From a virus (Duplodnaviria > Heunggongvirae > Uroviricota > Caudoviricetes), in IMG/VR virus record IMGVR_UViG_3300000279_000019: a DNA stretch of 16,930 nucleotides. One strand, written 5' to 3'. The translations under genes and the position numbers were made by a program. Within the stretch, counting starts at the first letter, position 1, and each line of letters starts with the position of its first letter. The notes beneath the pieces are model-generated. The model saw nothing but the letters and a program-made list of their open reading frames with translations, did no database searches and was not told where the DNA came from. This document shows, piece by piece, positions 1 to 16,930 of this stretch.

Positions 1-42
1 CTCTTTTGGCTTGGCAGTGTCTATTTGACGGGCATTGAGTTT
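1..42. repeat. Terminal direct repeat, copy 1 (identical to 16889-16930)
   Basis: ctcttttggcttggcagtgtctatttgacgggcattgagttt occurs at both window ends; on the minus strand it encodes KLNARQIDTAKPKE, i.e. integrase codons 2-15. Confidence 0.9.
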
Positions 43-45
43 CAC
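1..45 (-). other. int: 5' end of integrase gene (GTG start at 45..43 plus codons 2-15), contiguous with 16930 only if the molecule is circular
   Basis: Reverse complement of 1-45 reads GTG AAA CTC AAT GCC CGT CAA ATA GAC ACT GCC AAG CCA AAA GAG, preceded in frame by a TAG stop; the same codons precede the integrase body at the right end. Confidence 0.5.
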
Positions 46-298
46 TTGGGGGTATCTCCACTAAACTGAACAGCAAATCCCCTCAATTGCTTGTAGAGTT
101 TGGGGTACTTAAATAGACGTCAAAAGACTAAAAGGGGCATTAATATACTGATTATAAGAGGTTTTTAAATACTTGAGTAGACTTGGGGAGACGTTAGAAT
201 GGTGCGATAATAGGAACAAAACATAAACAAAAAATACATTGATATTTAATGATATTTTCATATTTCATTTTTATAGATACCCCCAAAAGTACCCCCAA
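46..298. repeat. Cluster of 11-12 bp GGGGGTA-type repeats in direct and inverted orientation; candidate integrase arm-type sites (attP region) or int promoter/operator
   Basis: TTGGGGGTATCT at 46-57 and its exact reverse complement AGATACCCCCAA at 275-286; TTTGGGGTACTT at 99-110 and near-inverse AGTACCCCCAA at 288-298; CTTGGGGAG at 182-190. Lies immediately upstream of the int start codon in the circular reading. Confidence 0.4.
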
Positions 299-989: not shown

Positions 990-2588
990 TTACCAATTAA
1001 AAATATAATCTTTTATTTTAAGATACATATCAACTTTCCCAGACCATTTTGATGCACTCTCTTTCATCTTTTCAATAACATCATCAATCAGTAAGTCTCT
1101 TCCTTTTACAATCAATTGATCATCATCAATACCCTCTGGTGCAAATTCATATATGTGCATGCTTAGATTAGACTTCTGAGTATGAGGGAATGAATCTTTT
1201 TCCACACACATATCAATAAACTCATTAATAGATAGTTCTTTCTGTTTACACATCATAAGTAATAATTCGAACTCATCAATTGTTATATAGTAAATTCTTT
1301 TTAGATCAATGGGGATACTATGATATTTTTCAGATAACTCAGTTGATAAATCAGGGTTAATAAAATCCTGCACAACCATTGCATTTGATATATGATGATC
1401 CCGATGCACCACAATTAACATTGAATCTTTCGAAGATGGTTTTCTCATCTCTATTTTATTTAAGTTAAAAGCACATTCCTGACCTTGATAAATCCCTTTA
1501 ATAAAACTCTTATTCAACCTTTCCTTTAGCAACTGAGCATTATTAGATGTTTTAACGAACTTTGCAGGCTCTATTGCCTTCGAGTCAATATAAACTATTG
1601 AATCTCCCTCTGAAATAACAAAATCTACGGACTTGCAATTTTTTATTGCATTATCACTATAAATCCTCTTAACCTCCCTTTCAGTCTTAAAGTTATAATT
1701 GTACTTATCAAGAAAGCGAGAAATATAAAGTTCCATCGTCTTACCAAATTTTTCTTTATAAGATTCCTTATAGACCTGCTTGAACAATTCTGGAACTAGG
1801 TTGACAAACCCTGACTTCATGATTCTTTTGCATAATATCACTACACCATCGCCATCTAAAAACATTGGTTTACTGAGGAATGGTGTATCTTCATAATACT
1901 CAGCGGTAATGTTTTTATCCAATTTATATGGGGCAATAAAATCTCTCACACCATCAATTTTTAAGCATGTTAATTCCAAAAATCTTTTCACTTGTTCCGG
2001 ACCAAATATCGGAACCAAGTTTATTATCAAGTGTTTAAATGGAATAACCTCTGATTCTATATCAGGATTAATACATGAAATAGCGGTAAAATAACATGCC
2101 ATTTTGTAATAGTTTTCCAAATGTAAACCAGTACATTCTAAAAACTTATCTTTATAATATGATTCATCATTCAAGCAATACCAAATATACTGTCTTGTTA
2201 ATGAATTGGCATTAAATTTATCAGTTGATTGATAAAGCAACTGATTTATCACCATTCGTCTAAGGCTTAGCATAACTTTATCATCAACGATTAAATTAGA
2301 TGCTTCTAGTTGCAAGTTATAGATTAAGTTGATAATATCAACAAAATCATTTTTACTCATTTCTTTTGCAGGCTTTTTTTCCTTCATGCAAAACTTCCAT
2401 TTCATTGCCAGATAGCAACACCAAGGGAAATTGGAAACAATACCCACCTCGACATCCCTTACTTTTTGGAAGTGTTCATAAAAATTTCTCAAAAAAGAAA
2501 CATCACTAAAATATGACAATCTTTTCTTAATCGCATCAACTTTTATAGAATATGACACTGGTGTCATTGTTTTTATTGCCACGCTCAT
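990..2588 (-). CDS. Hypothetical 532-aa protein, AT-rich cargo gene, no family recognised; possible PD-(D/E)xK-like motif
   Basis: Longest ORF in the window with ATG start and AAGG about 8 nt upstream; K/N/I/Y-rich composition from AT-rich DNA, in contrast to the roughly balanced backbone; segment VDFVISEGDSIVYIDSK resembles a D...(D/E)xK nuclease core; no Walker A motif seen. Confidence 0.75.
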   Translation of the reverse strand: MSVAIKTMTPVSYSIKVDAIKKRLSYFSDVSFLRNFYEHFQKVRDVEVGIVSNFPWCCYLAMKWKFCMKEKKPAKEMSKNDFVDIINLIYNLQLEASNLIVDDKVMLSLRRMVINQLLYQSTDKFNANSLTRQYIWYCLNDESYYKDKFLECTGLHLENYYKMACYFTAISCINPDIESEVIPFKHLIINLVPIFGPEQVKRFLELTCLKIDGVRDFIAPYKLDKNITAEYYEDTPFLSKPMFLDGDGVVILCKRIMKSGFVNLVPELFKQVYKESYKEKFGKTMELYISRFLDKYNYNFKTEREVKRIYSDNAIKNCKSVDFVISEGDSIVYIDSKAIEPAKFVKTSNNAQLLKERLNKSFIKGIYQGQECAFNLNKIEMRKPSSKDSMLIVVHRDHHISNAMVVQDFINPDLSTELSEKYHSIPIDLKRIYYITIDEFELLLMMCKQKELSINEFIDMCVEKDSFPHTQKSNLSMHIYEFAPEGIDDDQLIVKGRDLLIDDVIEKMKESASKWSGKVDMYLKIKDYIFNW

Positions 2589-3482: not shown

Positions 3483-3665
3483 TTAACGCCGTAACTTGTT
3501 TGGCTTCGTCCATTGGTACGCCTTTTCGTTTTCCCGCCGCTGGTGGCGTTCCTGTTGCAGCACAACGGAAACAGGCGCTGAACACCTGTTAATTTTGCTT
3601 GCTGGTTGTTTGATTCCGGCAATGCTGCGGATCATCTCCAGCATATCGGCTTCGGTGATGGTCAT
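3483..3665 (-). CDS. Hypothetical small protein (60 aa), downstream partner of the 193-aa membrane protein
   Basis: ATG at 3665 preceded by AGGAAA with a 4-nt spacer (sequence taggaaacctATG); earlier in-frame ATGs at 3692 and 3686 lack an SD. Product MTITEADMLEMIRS..., basic C-terminus. Confidence 0.45.
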   Translation of the reverse strand: MTITEADMLEMIRSIAGIKQPASKINRCSAPVSVVLQQERHQRRENEKAYQWTKPNKLRR

Positions 3666-8901: not shown

Positions 8902-10707
8902 TTATGTTCTGTCGTTAATCCCTGTAGCTGCTGGCAACCAGCCATCAGCATCATCATCTAACAGAACATTTGTTATCACTCGCCCTTTATCCGGGCCTTT
9001 AGTGCATTTAGCCCGCTTATACTCCTTTCCGTATTCCGCCATAGCTCCTGGCATATCAGTACCAAAGCGTGTCAGTGATACTGGTTTTCCCAGGCCATGC
9101 GCTGACATATAGGCTAAATAAGCATGATACAGGTATCGCCTCGGGCTAAATGGCACTATTTCCGCATTGCCCACCATCATTCCTTCACATTTAACCAACG
9201 ACATCAGATAGCCGCAAAAGTCCACCAGTGAATCACCTTCGCGCTTTATCAACAGCGCTTCTTCTGATTTTTGCTGCTCATAAAGTAGTCTTTTAGCTTC
9301 GTCCTGGTCGGTAAATCGTGTTAGCAAATGGCGAATCACTACCGCCAGTTCGCCTTCTATCTTTTCCGCCAGCATGGGATCGCGTTCGTTCTCCGGTACG
9401 ACCTCAGAGAAATTAAATATCACCCTACGACGCGAGATCCCCCCGCTTCGGTCACTGAATGACATGGCGTTATTGTTTACCGCAAGCACTACTGCCGGAA
9501 TACGTGTGGAGTAGGGGGCTTTATGTTTCGGATCAATTGCCACCTTGTCGCCGCCAGTAATTGCCTTAATTCCTGCACCATCGCCAGCGTAGCGAGTCAT
9601 ATCCGGCATGATAATCAGCGAAAAGCCAACTACTAACGCGCGTTCCCTTGCGTCTTCCAGAGCCTTCATGCTTGCCGATACTGTGTTGGCCTTACCCGCC
9701 AGCATGGTACAAATCTCAGCCATCACACTTTTACCGCTTCCGCCTGGGCCTGTTACCTCAAGGAATAACTGCCAGTCGTACCGGTTCGCCAGCACCATGA
9801 ATAATGCCGCCAGTACGCGATCAGCTTTACGATCATTATCTGCCACCGAACGACGCAGCCACTTCCAGAAATTCGGCGCATGTGTTGCCAGCGTTTCCCC
9901 CTCTGCTGGTGGGCTGAACGGTAATTCACTGGCATTTAACAACCAGTCATTTTTGTTATGCTCCCGAAAATTTCCCGTCCGGGTATCAAATACCCCGTTA
10001 CTGAATCCAATAAGATTCCTGTCTGCCCCGCCCATAACAGGCAGGCTCAATTTCATTGTGTCTACGGCAAATTTAATGGCGTTTTGCGAATAACTGATTC
10101 CAGCATCAATAAAAATCTTCGCCATAGACCGCTGGAGTTCCTTATCAGATACAGGCACCCAGACAATTCCGTTGTAATGGTGAACTACATCAGAATCATC
10201 ATTTATAGCCAGTGCTCTTCCATAATATTCAAGTAACACTTCCCCTCTCTGGCTGGCTCCCATCTGATTTAGTGCTGGCCTGGATAGGTCAATATTTTTT
10301 GTGGCTAATTTCATCGCTGAAACTTCCCCACTCTCTGCCTGTTCGCGGATCCGTTGCAGGTAGTCGCGCCAGTTTTCCGGCTCCCGGTCGGTGATACCTT
10401 TGTATAATTTCGCGTCCTGTACACCAGCCAGCGCCAGCTTTTCAGCAATAGCATTGATCTGGATTGGCTCTATCTCCCCCGCGAGATAGACACGCGCAAA
10501 GCGGCGTTCATCGTCGACAATGCGGATATTCGCCAGGTCTGCCAGTTGCTTTGGCCCCAGGTAAACAGGAGGCACGTTATCGCCGTGTTTTCGTCCTTCG
10601 CTTTCAATCCAGTGTTGAGCATGGGCGTAAGCATCCGTCCCGGCAAAAATGATTACCTCGGTGAATTTATCCTTCGGCTGATATTTTAAATTCGGTGCGT
10701 TTTTCAC
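8902..10707 (-). CDS. P4 alpha-like primase/helicase (601 aa)
   Basis: GTG start with GGAGG SD 6 nt upstream; Walker A GPGGSGKS; D5_N-like FSNGVFDTRTG motif; general architecture typical of phage/plasmid P4-family primases; iterons immediately downstream. Confidence 0.85.
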   Translation of the reverse strand: MKNAPNLKYQPKDKFTEVIIFAGTDAYAHAQHWIESEGRKHGDNVPPVYLGPKQLADLANIRIVDDERRFARVYLAGEIEPIQINAIAEKLALAGVQDAKLYKGITDREPENWRDYLQRIREQAESGEVSAMKLATKNIDLSRPALNQMGASQRGEVLLEYYGRALAINDDSDVVHHYNGIVWVPVSDKELQRSMAKIFIDAGISYSQNAIKFAVDTMKLSLPVMGGADRNLIGFSNGVFDTRTGNFREHNKNDWLLNASELPFSPPAEGETLATHAPNFWKWLRRSVADNDRKADRVLAALFMVLANRYDWQLFLEVTGPGGSGKSVMAEICTMLAGKANTVSASMKALEDARERALVVGFSLIIMPDMTRYAGDGAGIKAITGGDKVAIDPKHKAPYSTRIPAVVLAVNNNAMSFSDRSGGISRRRVIFNFSEVVPENERDPMLAEKIEGELAVVIRHLLTRFTDQDEAKRLLYEQQKSEEALLIKREGDSLVDFCGYLMSLVKCEGMMVGNAEIVPFSPRRYLYHAYLAYMSAHGLGKPVSLTRFGTDMPGAMAEYGKEYKRAKCTKGPDKGRVITNVLLDDDADGWLPAATGINDRT

Positions 10708-14450: not shown

Positions 14451-14648
14451 TCAGGTAGCTGTTCCGCGTGATTCCGCAATACGCTGATTAATCCACTCGT
14501 CAATTTCACTCTCAACGAAAGCAATAGCTCGCGAGCCAATTTTAACTGATGCAGGAAATTTACCTTGCCCCATAAGGCGATAAATCCATGCCTTGCTATA
14601 TCCAGTTCTACGCTGAACTTCCGTTAAACGAATAAGAGAGTTTGCCAT
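14451..14648 (-). CDS. alpA: AlpA-family regulator / excisionase (65 aa)
   Basis: AAGGTGA SD; LIRLTEVQRRTGYSKAWIYRLMGQGKFP...VESEIDEWINQR aligns with E. coli AlpA ILRLPAVIQKTGMARATIYDWL...IEAEIDEWLSQR. Confidence 0.8.
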   Translation of the reverse strand: MANSLIRLTEVQRRTGYSKAWIYRLMGQGKFPASVKIGSRAIAFVESEIDEWINQRIAESRGTAT

Positions 14649-15718: not shown

Positions 15719-16930
15719 TCACCCGCATTTTCCGAACTCACCATGCACCACATTTCCGCCATGCTCGAGCGAATCCATATAGTCGGCATACCACTGGAGC
15801 ATCTCCCGGCGACCATCCAGATATTGCGCATGGTTGTATGTGCCACGAATTGAGTTTTTATCGACGTGTGCGAGCTGTGTCTCTATCCACGCGGTGTTAT
15901 AGCCCTGCTCATGCAAAATGGTGCTCATGGTGTGCCGGAATCCATGACCAGTAACCTTTCCGTTATAGCCGATGCGTTTAAATACTTGGTTTATGCTAGC
16001 CTCGCTCATTGTTTTCCTTGGATCATTACGGCCGGGAAACATAAGCGGATAATTGCCAGTTAATTCTTTAATCTGCCCAATAAGCGAAAGAGCCTGCTTA
16101 GACAAAGGCACCACATGAGGGCGACGCATTTTCATCCGTGAAGCAGGTATCTCCCAGATAGCCTTGTTGAGATCGATTTCATCCCATAATGCACCGCGCA
16201 GTTCGCCAGTCCGCAAACCGGTGATAATCAGTAGACGAGCCGCCATAACAACCAATGCACTTCCTGAGTAACTGGACAATGCCTTGAAAAAATCAGGTAA
16301 TTCTTTGGCTGTGAGGAAAGGATAATGATTAGATTCATGACCTTGCATCGCGCTGGTGAGATCCGGTGCAGGGTTATACTCAGCACGTCCAGTGACAATT
16401 GCATAGCGGAAAACTTCCCCGCATCGCTGCCTCACTTTTTTGGCTTTTTCGGTAGCACCGCGCCCCTCGATGCGCCGCAGCACATTCAGCAGTTCAAGTG
16501 GTTTGATTTCGGCGATTGGTTTTTTGCCAATGTAAGGGAACACATCTTTGTTGAAGGCTTCGAGGATGTCTGAAGCATAACCAGCAGACCATTTTTTTAA
16601 TTTGCTGCTGTGCCACTCAAGGGCAATATCTTTGAAGGTGCTGTTTAACTGCGTTTCCCGGGCAATCTTTTCCTCTCGTTTCGCTTCCATCGGATCGATA
16701 CCCCCAGCGATCCCCCTTTTAGCTTCTTCACGTTTTGCACGAGCATCAGCCAAGGTAACTTCAGGATACACACCTAGTGCTAACAGCTTCTCTTTACCAG
16801 CTACACGATATTTGAAGCGCCAATATTTTCCTCCACTAGGTTTTACCAAGAGATACAGACCACCACCATCAGCCAGCTTGTAAGCCTTCTCTTTTGGCTT
16901 GGCAGTGTCTATTTGACGGGCATTGAGTTT
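15719..16930 (-). CDS. int: Tyrosine integrase, P4-type (5' end runs off the window; start codon found at 45..43 in a circular reading)
   Basis: N-terminal KLNARQIDTAKPKEKAYKLADGGGLYLLVKPSGGKYWRFKYRVAGKEKLLALGVYPEVTLADAR is the conserved P4-integrase N-domain; C-terminal catalytic region with HGFRHT and LAHVD motifs and a tyrosine near the end; the track M at 16849 is an internal TTG. Confidence 0.9.
   Translation of the reverse strand, partial: KLNARQIDTAKPKEKAYKLADGGGLYLLVKPSGGKYWRFKYRVAGKEKLLALGVYPEVTLADARAKREEAKRGIAGGIDPMEAKREEKIARETQLNSTFKDIALEWHSSKLKKWSAGYASDILEAFNKDVFPYIGKKPIAEIKPLELLNVLRRIEGRGATEKAKKVRQRCGEVFRYAIVTGRAEYNPAPDLTSAMQGHESNHYPFLTAKELPDFFKALSSYSGSALVVMAARLLIITGLRTGELRGALWDEIDLNKAIWEIPASRMKMRRPHVVPLSKQALSLIGQIKELTGNYPLMFPGRNDPRKTMSEASINQVFKRIGYNGKVTGHGFRHTMSTILHEQGYNTAWIETQLAHVDKNSIRGTYNHAQYLDGRREMLQWYADYMDSLEHGGNVVHGEFGKCG
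16889..16930. repeat. Terminal direct repeat, copy 2 (identical to 1-42)
   Basis: Exact 42/42 identity with positions 1-42; repeat may extend beyond the window edge. Confidence 0.9.

Follow-up and report, generated by a model that had tools for sequence, protein, structure and literature searches.

Do the GGGGGTA-type repeats that lie inverted around AT-rich DNA upstream of an integrase gene (int) mark the attachment site of a mobile element, and if so, of which one? The question is raised by positions 46–298 of IMGVR_UViG_3300000279_000019, a 16,930-nucleotide stretch of DNA (the window) recorded as a virus of the Caudoviricetes, for which a sequence-only reading had proposed either arm-type binding sites around the phage attachment site (attP) of a tyrosine recombinase or an operator set for int. 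The repeats are, in all probability, arm-type sites for the N-terminal domain of a P4-family tyrosine integrase (Int), standing on both sides of a 16-bp core from the tRNA gene thrW at the seam of a tandem array. The elements of this arrangement, with P and P′ denoting the two arms, are as follows.

1–45, minus strand: 5′ end of int2, the first 15 codons (GTG start 45→43) of a P4-family integrase gene that leaves the window at its left end; its translation, VKLNARQIDTAKPKE, is the N-terminus of a 404-aa Int.
46–57, plus strand: putative start-proximal arm-type site of the P′ arm; the int strand reads TACCCCCAA directly before the GTG, inverted relative to the tandem pairs and promoter-distal.
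56–59, minus strand: putative Shine-Dalgarno sequence GGAG of int2, sharing 56–57 with the 12-mer at 46–57 and lying upstream (on the int strand) of the TACCCCCAA heptamer core at 46–54.
78–86, minus strand: decayed remnant TTGAGGGGA of the P′ tandem pair, which has lost one 12-bp unit and carries two substitutions relative to intact TTGGGGGTActtTTGGGGGTA.
99–110, plus strand: GGGGTA-like copy with four Gs, a doubtful arm site found only in E. coli-type P′ arms.
151–156, minus strand: candidate −10 box TATAAT of a putative int promoter in the P′ arm; TATAAT or TATACT is kept in many closer relatives.
198–204, minus strand: probable strand-exchange (overlap) region CACCATT, from comparison of the attL, attR and tRNA cores.
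200–215, minus strand: attachment (att) core TCCTATTATCGCACCA, the 3′ terminus of the tRNA-Thr gene thrW, TCCTATTATCGGCACCA, minus one G.
232–244, minus strand: IHF-like site TATCAATGTATTT in the AT-rich P-arm spacer, from a pattern scan with the consensus WATCAANNNNTTR, the final base being off.
275–286, minus strand: putative core-proximal arm-type site TTGGGGGTATCT, 62 bp away from the core in the P arm of the GapS1 island.
287–298, minus strand: putative core-distal arm-type site TTGGGGGTACTT in the P arm of the GapS1 island, in 12-bp tandem with 275–286.
15719–16930, minus strand: int1, the GapS1-island integrase (404 aa, its start codon alone lying outside the window), proposed binder of the arm sites.

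As repeats, both pairs described by the sequence-only reading are real. On rechecking with an inverted-repeat scan, TTGGGGGTATCT at 46–57 and AGATACCCCCAA at 275–286 form 12-nt arms of 100% complementarity, and TTTGGGGTACTT at 99–110 and AAGTACCCCCAA at 287–298 form 12-nt arms complementary at 11 of 12 positions (92%). TACCCCCAA is also repeated directly at 278–286 and 290–298 with a 12-bp period, and a copy with one mismatch lies at 99–107. Allowing up to one mismatch, TTGGGGGTA has eight copies in the window against 2.93 expected, four of the eight falling inside 46–298, and the Poisson probability of at least four copies of a 9-mer within 253 bp is 1.5e-7; among 300 dinucleotide shuffles of 1–340, four produced an exact inverted repeat with separated arms of 12 nt or more. 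The bracketed DNA is indeed AT-rich, with a GC content of 0.27 in 111–274 and 0.14 in 216–274 compared with 0.44 for the whole window, and it does lie upstream of int, the frame of which begins with GTG (45→43) on the minus strand and exits at the left end.

Because the sequence-only reading saw no tRNA-like 3′ end nearby, it supposed that the integration target might not be a tRNA gene; this supposition proved wrong, since thrW, whose 3′ end makes up 200–215, is the gene that the island occupies. ARAGORN (for tRNA) and Rfam scans of the window gave no match, a 16-nt tRNA fragment being below their reach, and the core was found by comparison with thrW of related genomes. Comparison of the empty chromosomal site (attB) with the tRNA-side and far-side junctions (attL and attR), the check which that reading had named, places the core between the repeat arms. 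In this comparison the tRNA side (locus L002, 20890 onwards), the far side (L002, ~4006) and the window were set against each other: thrW ends ...TCCTATTATCGGCACCA; the far island end in L002 (4006–4021) reads TCCTATTATCGCACCA and is followed by chromosomal DNA; and these 16 nt recur on the minus strand at window 200–215, where upstream DNA of the second int, and not chromosomal DNA, comes next. A core from the tRNA 3′ end is thus present at both ends of the element, in thrW (attL) and at 200–215 or L002 4006–4021 (attR), and thrW itself lies about 165 bp past int1 in L002 and L003. The empty site, rebuilt in silico from thrW and the chromosomal flank, is found in 948 of 5426 complete E. coli genomes when a match over at least 80% of the query is counted, with 100% identity over 600 nt in every genome among the matches listed. 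As the empty site is intact in other genomes, the ends of the island are proven and the crossover falls within the core.

The position of the exchange within the core can be narrowed further. All four attR cores examined carry one G, whereas attL and the tRNA carry GG (TCCTATTATCG(G)CACCA), so that the element-borne core would be attB minus 1 nt and the exchange would lie 3′ of that G; identity between the partners ends after CACCAT(T), which places strand exchange, as far as the cores allow us to infer it, within CACCAT(T) at window 198–204. Cores of the form TCCTATTATCG-CACCA lacking one G were recorded on the attR side at window 200–215, L002 4006–4021, L011 24312, L093 ~150 and L098 30181.

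To which element, then, do the two arms belong? The window is an E. coli chromosomal island, and its closest genome, K56-43-un, is 99.6% identical over the full window. Between the two int starts lie genes for an AlpA-family helix-turn-helix (HTH) protein, AntA, an Icd-like protein, a D5_N/DUF5906 primase, ProQ/FinO, PerC and, at the end, GapS1. In K56-43-un, where MarR and vat come next, int2 is a 336-bp fragment annotated as 'Arm DNA-binding domain-containing protein'; the 15 codons of int2 within the window are identical to those of int1. The GapS1 island is seen in two settings, upstream of the vat island and solo. In the latter setting, represented by avian pathogenic E. coli (APEC) E123, the order is proBA, thrW, int1 ... 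gapS1, core, LysR fragment and paoD, and the solo island carries the same P-arm pair as the window. In ATCC 25922, thrW is joined directly to an arm identical to window 1–199 over the stretch compared, with an intact GG core replacing 200–215; past the P′ arm, which carries the same decayed pair, come a truncated int, MarR and vat. ATCC 25922 and about 400 further genomes match the int2-side arm at 99% identity or above; most of the sampled matches have thrW annotated as joined directly to this arm, and hybrid junctions spanning both arms occur in 61 genomes.

From the thrW/P′-arm join of ATCC 25922 and the solo island it follows that the window represents a GapS1 island inserted in thrW of a strain in which the vat island was already present. 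On this comparison, 216–298 is assigned to the P arm of a roughly 17-kb, satellite-like island carrying GapS1, and 1–199 to the P′ arm and int start of an older vat-associated element, the two being joined at the core. Since the junction is hybrid, the exact partners 46–57 and 275–286 come from two different elements. The idea of a single element's attP is therefore to be replaced: the region is a chromosomal hybrid, in which the attR of the GapS1 island is fused to the attL of the vat-associated int, and its two arms, from different elements at a chromosomal site, are not those of a free attP. A megablast search of a phage collection with positions 1–1000 gave no match.

The same arrangement has consequences beyond the core. 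Positions 1–41 equal 16890–16930; each stretch holds the opening codons of an int gene, and the two genes are homologous and lie in direct orientation, so the GapS1 island is bracketed by a direct repeat beyond the att core, and homologous recombination could delete it without Int. Hybrid junctions were also observed in E. coli ET650 (L007) and NWU_3 (L008), where a longer thrW fragment, from the anticodon loop on, has phage tail genes upstream; these longer cores indicate that phages with longer cores stack in tandem with P4-type islands. As a separate observation, thrW is targeted in E. coli by at least two unrelated integrase lineages (the present Int and IntF), plus phages.

With the seam recognised, the attP of the solo island can be rebuilt. 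Read in the direction of int, it consists of the TTGGGGGTActtTTGGGGGTA P pair, 62 bp of AT-rich DNA with TATCAATGTATTT, the core, 113 bp with the conserved TATAAT, the TTGGGGGTActtTTGGGGGTA P′ pair, about 20 bp with GGAGG, TACCCCCAA and the GTG. In four thrW islands 60–62 bp separate the P-arm pair from the core, and TATCAA recurs at a similar place in three of four thrW P arms (the window, L011 and AR_0014, L009), being absent in strain B1. The motifs thus flank the crossover core, and in sequence family, number, orientation and spacing they are those of the attP arm repeats of phage P4, in line with the arm-site proposal of the sequence-only reading.

Conservation was assessed in 80 loci, one genome per species, from about 40 Enterobacterales genera with Int 63–100% identical. 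The exact tandem pair is kept in 66 of these, always with a 12-bp period, whilst the flanks diverge freely; the pair ends about 30–33 bp ahead of the start codon (P′ arm) in most loci, and the inverted, start-proximal T[A/G]CCCCC copy stands 1–4 nt before the start codon in 76 of 80. GGAG or GAG is kept at the Shine-Dalgarno position of relatives, which is consistent with GGAG at 56–59 serving int2 in this capacity. In 40 loci all three sites have T as the sixth base of the heptamer, in 25 all three have C, and no locus is mixed (GGGGGTA versus GGGGGCA). Wherever both ends of an element are known, the P and P′ arms carry the same variant (5 of 5), the TA elements being the GapS1 island and the strain B1 island and the CA elements the NWU_3 island, the 50-kb AR_0014 island and P4.

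This variation is matched in the protein. Int1 contains the Pfam domains Arm-DNA-bind_3 (1.5e-19), Phage_int_M and Phage_integrase, and Int residues 2–99 align with arm-type binding domains of known structure, those of the HAI7 and HPI integrases, 3JU0 (E = 9e-28) and 3JTZ/3RMP, over a range of 3e-21 to 9e-28, the likeness being one at the protein level. Two E. coli Ints of opposite class are near-identical from residue ~100 on and strongly different before it. In an alignment of 67 integrases (~404 columns), only three columns split the TA and CA classes perfectly, and all three lie in the arm domain: residues 29 (L versus E), 50 (L versus R) and 53 (L/I/V versus F). The repeats thus co-vary with the arm-binding domain of Int across about 70 relatives. 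Taken together, the footprint, the concerted T/C change, the residues that track it and the domain matches make a strong case that it is the arm domain of Int which reads the heptamers.

The second inverted pair (99–110 with 287–298) stands as a repeat but not as a conserved arm motif. The 99–110 copy is replaced in relatives, most other genera reading TCTATTGAAA at this place, which is the middle unit of a TCTAC/TCTAT/TCTAC series in 10-bp phase, and the P4 record annotates no repeat at the corresponding position; 99–110 is accordingly doubtful as an Int site. The TCTAC/TCTAT/TCTAC units themselves (e.g. acgTCTACtaacaTCTATtgaaaTCTAC) were observed about 60–100 bp upstream of int in loci L013–L092 and at ~88–125 (minus strand) of the window. 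They lie between the putative promoter and the P′ pair, are kept across genera and have a spacing typical of directionality-factor sites, and they are better candidates for sites of the putative AlpA-family directionality factor than for sites of Int.

A mechanism that would accommodate these features can be outlined. The GapS1 island integrated into thrW of a strain that already had a vat island with a homologous int. An Int monomer would grip an arm site with its N-terminal domain and a core half-site with its C-terminal domains, the AT-rich spacers would bend so that the arms fold onto the core to form an intasome, and strands would be exchanged in CACCAT(T), where the tRNA has its CCA end. 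Int on the P′ sites would also be expected to lower int expression, because the likely promoter is on one side of these sites and the start codon on the other. This putative promoter is assigned from the conserved TATAAT; a generic sigma-70 scan gave matches no more frequent than in shuffles, its weak candidates including none at 151–156.

Several points weigh against this interpretation. Arm-site function rests on comparison. The P′ arm in the window is decayed, its middle pair having been lost (the decay at 78–86 was read by eye from an alignment of window 1–216 with the intact attL of the same int type at locus L002), and its int is a fragment in the closest genomes; for these reasons half of the 46–57/275–286 bracket may no longer be functional, and the decay of the P′ pair fits the pseudogene state of int2 in related genomes. 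The 99–110 copy is, as noted, not conserved. Independent T↔C switches are not countable, since recombination may transfer arm domain and arms jointly. For Int 2–101, a single-sequence AlphaFold model reached a predicted local distance difference test score (pLDDT) of 55, too low to place residues 29, 50 and 53 or to show 29 and 50 on the DNA-facing sheet. Lastly, an RNA hairpin would account equally well for the T/C co-variation of the second P′ repeat with the start-proximal copy.

Such a hairpin is the best-surviving alternative, albeit an unlikely one. In the int mRNA the second GGGGGYA would pair with the start-proximal TRCCCCC in a GC-rich helix of 7–8 bp, with the Shine-Dalgarno sequence in the loop and the 3′ arm ending 1–4 nt before the start codon, and this structure, which could coexist with a role of the DNA, would serve to attenuate transcripts reading through from the tRNA promoter, or to block translation. 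RNAalifold, applied to 20 diverse relatives, returns exactly this helix, with a compensatory change from U-A (14 sequences) to C-G (6 sequences), and in ICEKp1, also of the P4 family, stem-loops in the 5′ untranslated region (5′-UTR) of int attenuate tRNA-driven int transcripts (PMC13023037). However, the first repeat of the pair is equally conserved and co-varies although it cannot pair simultaneously; the P-arm pair, more than 15 kb from int when integrated and lacking a complementary partner, carries the same variant in 5 of 5 elements; the variant tracks residues of the DNA-binding domain; and an inverted arm site beside a direct pair gives hairpin potential automatically. An RNA hairpin is therefore at most an added role.

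Far less probable is that the repeats act as an operator only, bound by Int, AlpA or another regulator for int transcription and without a role in recombination. The P′ sites do lie between the conserved TATAAT and the start codon, and P4 Int and other integrases repress their own promoters (PMC7286903, PMC2951348). An operator does not explain, however, why the P-arm pair should lie about 17 kb from int1 when integrated, at the far end of the island and beyond the reach of an operator, why the sites are placed symmetrically about a proven crossover core at conserved distances, or why the P4 annotation gives this layout as attP arms. A secondary role of the P′ sites as an int operator, in addition to their putative role as arm sites, is plausible by analogy with P4 Int and PAI-I536 IntI. 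The notion of a chance or compositional repeat, or a functionless by-product of tandem insertion, is ruled out by the comparative data, for although part of the window is truly duplicated (1–41 and 16890–16930, the two int 5′ ends) and a lone 12-nt inverted repeat arises in about 1% of shuffles, the motif cluster has the Poisson probability of 1.5e-7 given above, the motifs are kept in about 40 genera while the flanks diverge, and the solo island has the same P-arm pair.

If the heptamers are arm-type sites read by Int, the T/C difference acquires a meaning of its own. Matched as it is by L29/L50/L53 versus E29/R50/F53, it may, and we put this forward tentatively, define two orthogonal arm-recognition classes in the P4 integrase family, with the start-proximal copy perhaps doubling as a hairpin arm. 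Both classes share the same tRNA cores, and both occur at thrW in E. coli. Were this idea correct, the difference would be a natural minimal recognition switch, in which Glu and Arg read a C:G pair, and the switch could decide which tandem or co-resident elements excise each other.

The remaining genes relevant to the island are the following.

990–2588, minus strand: GapS1-family anti-phage gene, the last gene ahead of the P arm.
8902–10707, minus strand: intact D5_N/DUF5906 primase gene (601 aa), frameshifted in K56-43-un.
14451–14648, minus strand: AlpA-family HTH protein (Pfam Phage_AlpA, E = 2.4e-19), likely the excision or directionality factor of the island, a role assigned from its family.

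As the primase gene is intact here and frameshifted in K56-43-un, the primase of the window may still be replication-competent. The position next to the P arm, occupied by GapS1 in the window, holds DUF4747, an open reading frame (ORF) named 'orthopoxvirus A36R' or hypothetical genes in other islands of the same backbone, which suggests a cargo hotspot adjoining attR. Between the P arm and gapS1, about 690 bp (300–990) contain no ORF longer than 56 aa, and an Rfam scan of this non-coding block gave no convincing match; many genomes hold a counterpart of positions 198–732, about 87% identical and devoid of annotated features. At 957–986, 4 nt past the end of gapS1 (stop codon 990–992), a perfect 12-bp inverted repeat, AGCAAGGGTGTT / AACACCCTTGCT, with a 6-nt loop is likely a terminator.

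The analysis fixes the exact ends, the core and the probable Int-binding sites of a thrW-borne, satellite-like island that carries the GapS1 defence gene, and it documents the tandem stacking of such islands beside the vat pathogenicity island. These assignments should be of use in annotating island boundaries and in predicting which junctions stay excisable. The roughly 70 pairs of integrase and arm sites furnish a testable hypothesis on how P4-family integrases read their arm sites, and could aid the design of orthogonal integrase/att systems.

Several known systems share parts of this design. Lambda attP and the island site as proposed have in common an Int that is heterobivalent, a short core flanked on either side by arm sites, and spacers that are AT-rich and bendable (PMC2951348, PMC8138268), and in lambda function depends on contacts between the N-domain and the arms (PMC2951348, PMC8138268). 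Lambda, with P1 and P2, P′1–P′3 and an intasome bent by IHF, differs in arm-domain family and in the sequence, number and spacing of its sites, and its core is not in a tRNA gene.

The predicted position of the int promoter within the P′ arm of attL is shared with KplE1 IntS/TorI, P4 Int and PAI-I536 IntI, although the KplE1 IntS integrase is unrelated to the island Int. Panis et al. 2010 (PMC2951348) describe overlap of attL with the int promoter as a general means of autoregulation. Repression of its own promoter by P4 Int is stated in PMC7286903, which cites Pierson & Kahn 1987 and Piazzolla 2006, and autorepression is described for PAI-I536 IntI (PMC7286903); K-12 IntF at thrW/ptwF shows 23-fold autorepression (Panis 2010, PMC2951348). 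The latter system, CP4-6 IntF/ptwF of K-12, was considered as a homologous one and set aside, since BLASTP gives E = 1e-4 over 53 aa and the upstream region is devoid of GGGGGYA repeats, leaving an analogy only. CP4-6 IntF (MG1655 295696–297400) has 466 aa and is accompanied by a thrW fragment of roughly 46 bp (ptwF).

ICEKp1 resembles the island in having a P4-family int beside a tRNA gene and a 5′-UTR able to form stem-loops (PMC13023037), the island hairpin being a predicted one, and it switches promoters in a state-dependent manner (PMC13023037). The island hairpin, predicted from sequence alone, is built of the arm sites themselves, unlike that of ICEKp1.

The closest likeness is to P4 itself, for which the 'attP arm sequence repeat' features of GenBank X51522 served as reference. 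The P pair of P4, GTGGGGGCACAA and AAGGGGGCATAT, is in tandem 53 bp from the core (62 bp in the GapS1 island); the P4 core, GAGTCCGGCCTTCGGCACCA, is a tRNA 3′ end like that of thrW, both ending ...GGCACCA; the P′ pair, TTGGGGGCATAA and TTGGGGGCATCT, begins 112 bp past the core (113 bp in the rebuilt island attP); and the inverted TTGGGGGCACAT, 15 bp past the P′ pair (~20 bp in the island), lies directly against the MKLNARQ start of int. The sites agree in number, orientation and spacing, the tandem pair in the P arm of each having a 12-bp period, and TTGGGGGTATCT of the window is TTGGGGGCATCT of P4 with one C-to-T change. The N-termini of P4 Int and int1 are homologous (MKLNARQ...GGGLYL...YWR.KYR), and P4 Int has the CA-class signature at residues 29, 50 and 53; the sixth base of the heptamer is T in the island with L29/L50/L53 and C in P4 with E/R/F. 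The P4 record also places an arm-type repeat within int (3621–3632), at another codon position than the internal CTGGGGGTA of int1 (16699–16707, minus strand); the latter, considered as an arm site and rejected, encodes A-G-G-I and is probably a coding coincidence.

P4 targets leuX and the island thrW (core TCCTATTATCGGCACCA). The carrier is not P4, as it is without sid/delta/psu or alpha and has instead a D5-type primase, AntA, ProQ, PerC and GapS1; and, unlike P4 attP, the site in the window is a chromosomal hybrid in which two elements meet and one arm has decayed. P4 attP was described earlier (Pierson & Kahn 1987, as cited in PMC7286903). A literature search, to which the primary P4 and HPI papers were out of reach, found no mention of the T/C class, and a search with the motif strings gave unrelated primers only. 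The site thus belongs to an already known family of P4-type attachment sites, and its mechanism is not new; the sole new element that it adds may be the T/C class, all-or-none and linked to residues 29, 50 and 53.

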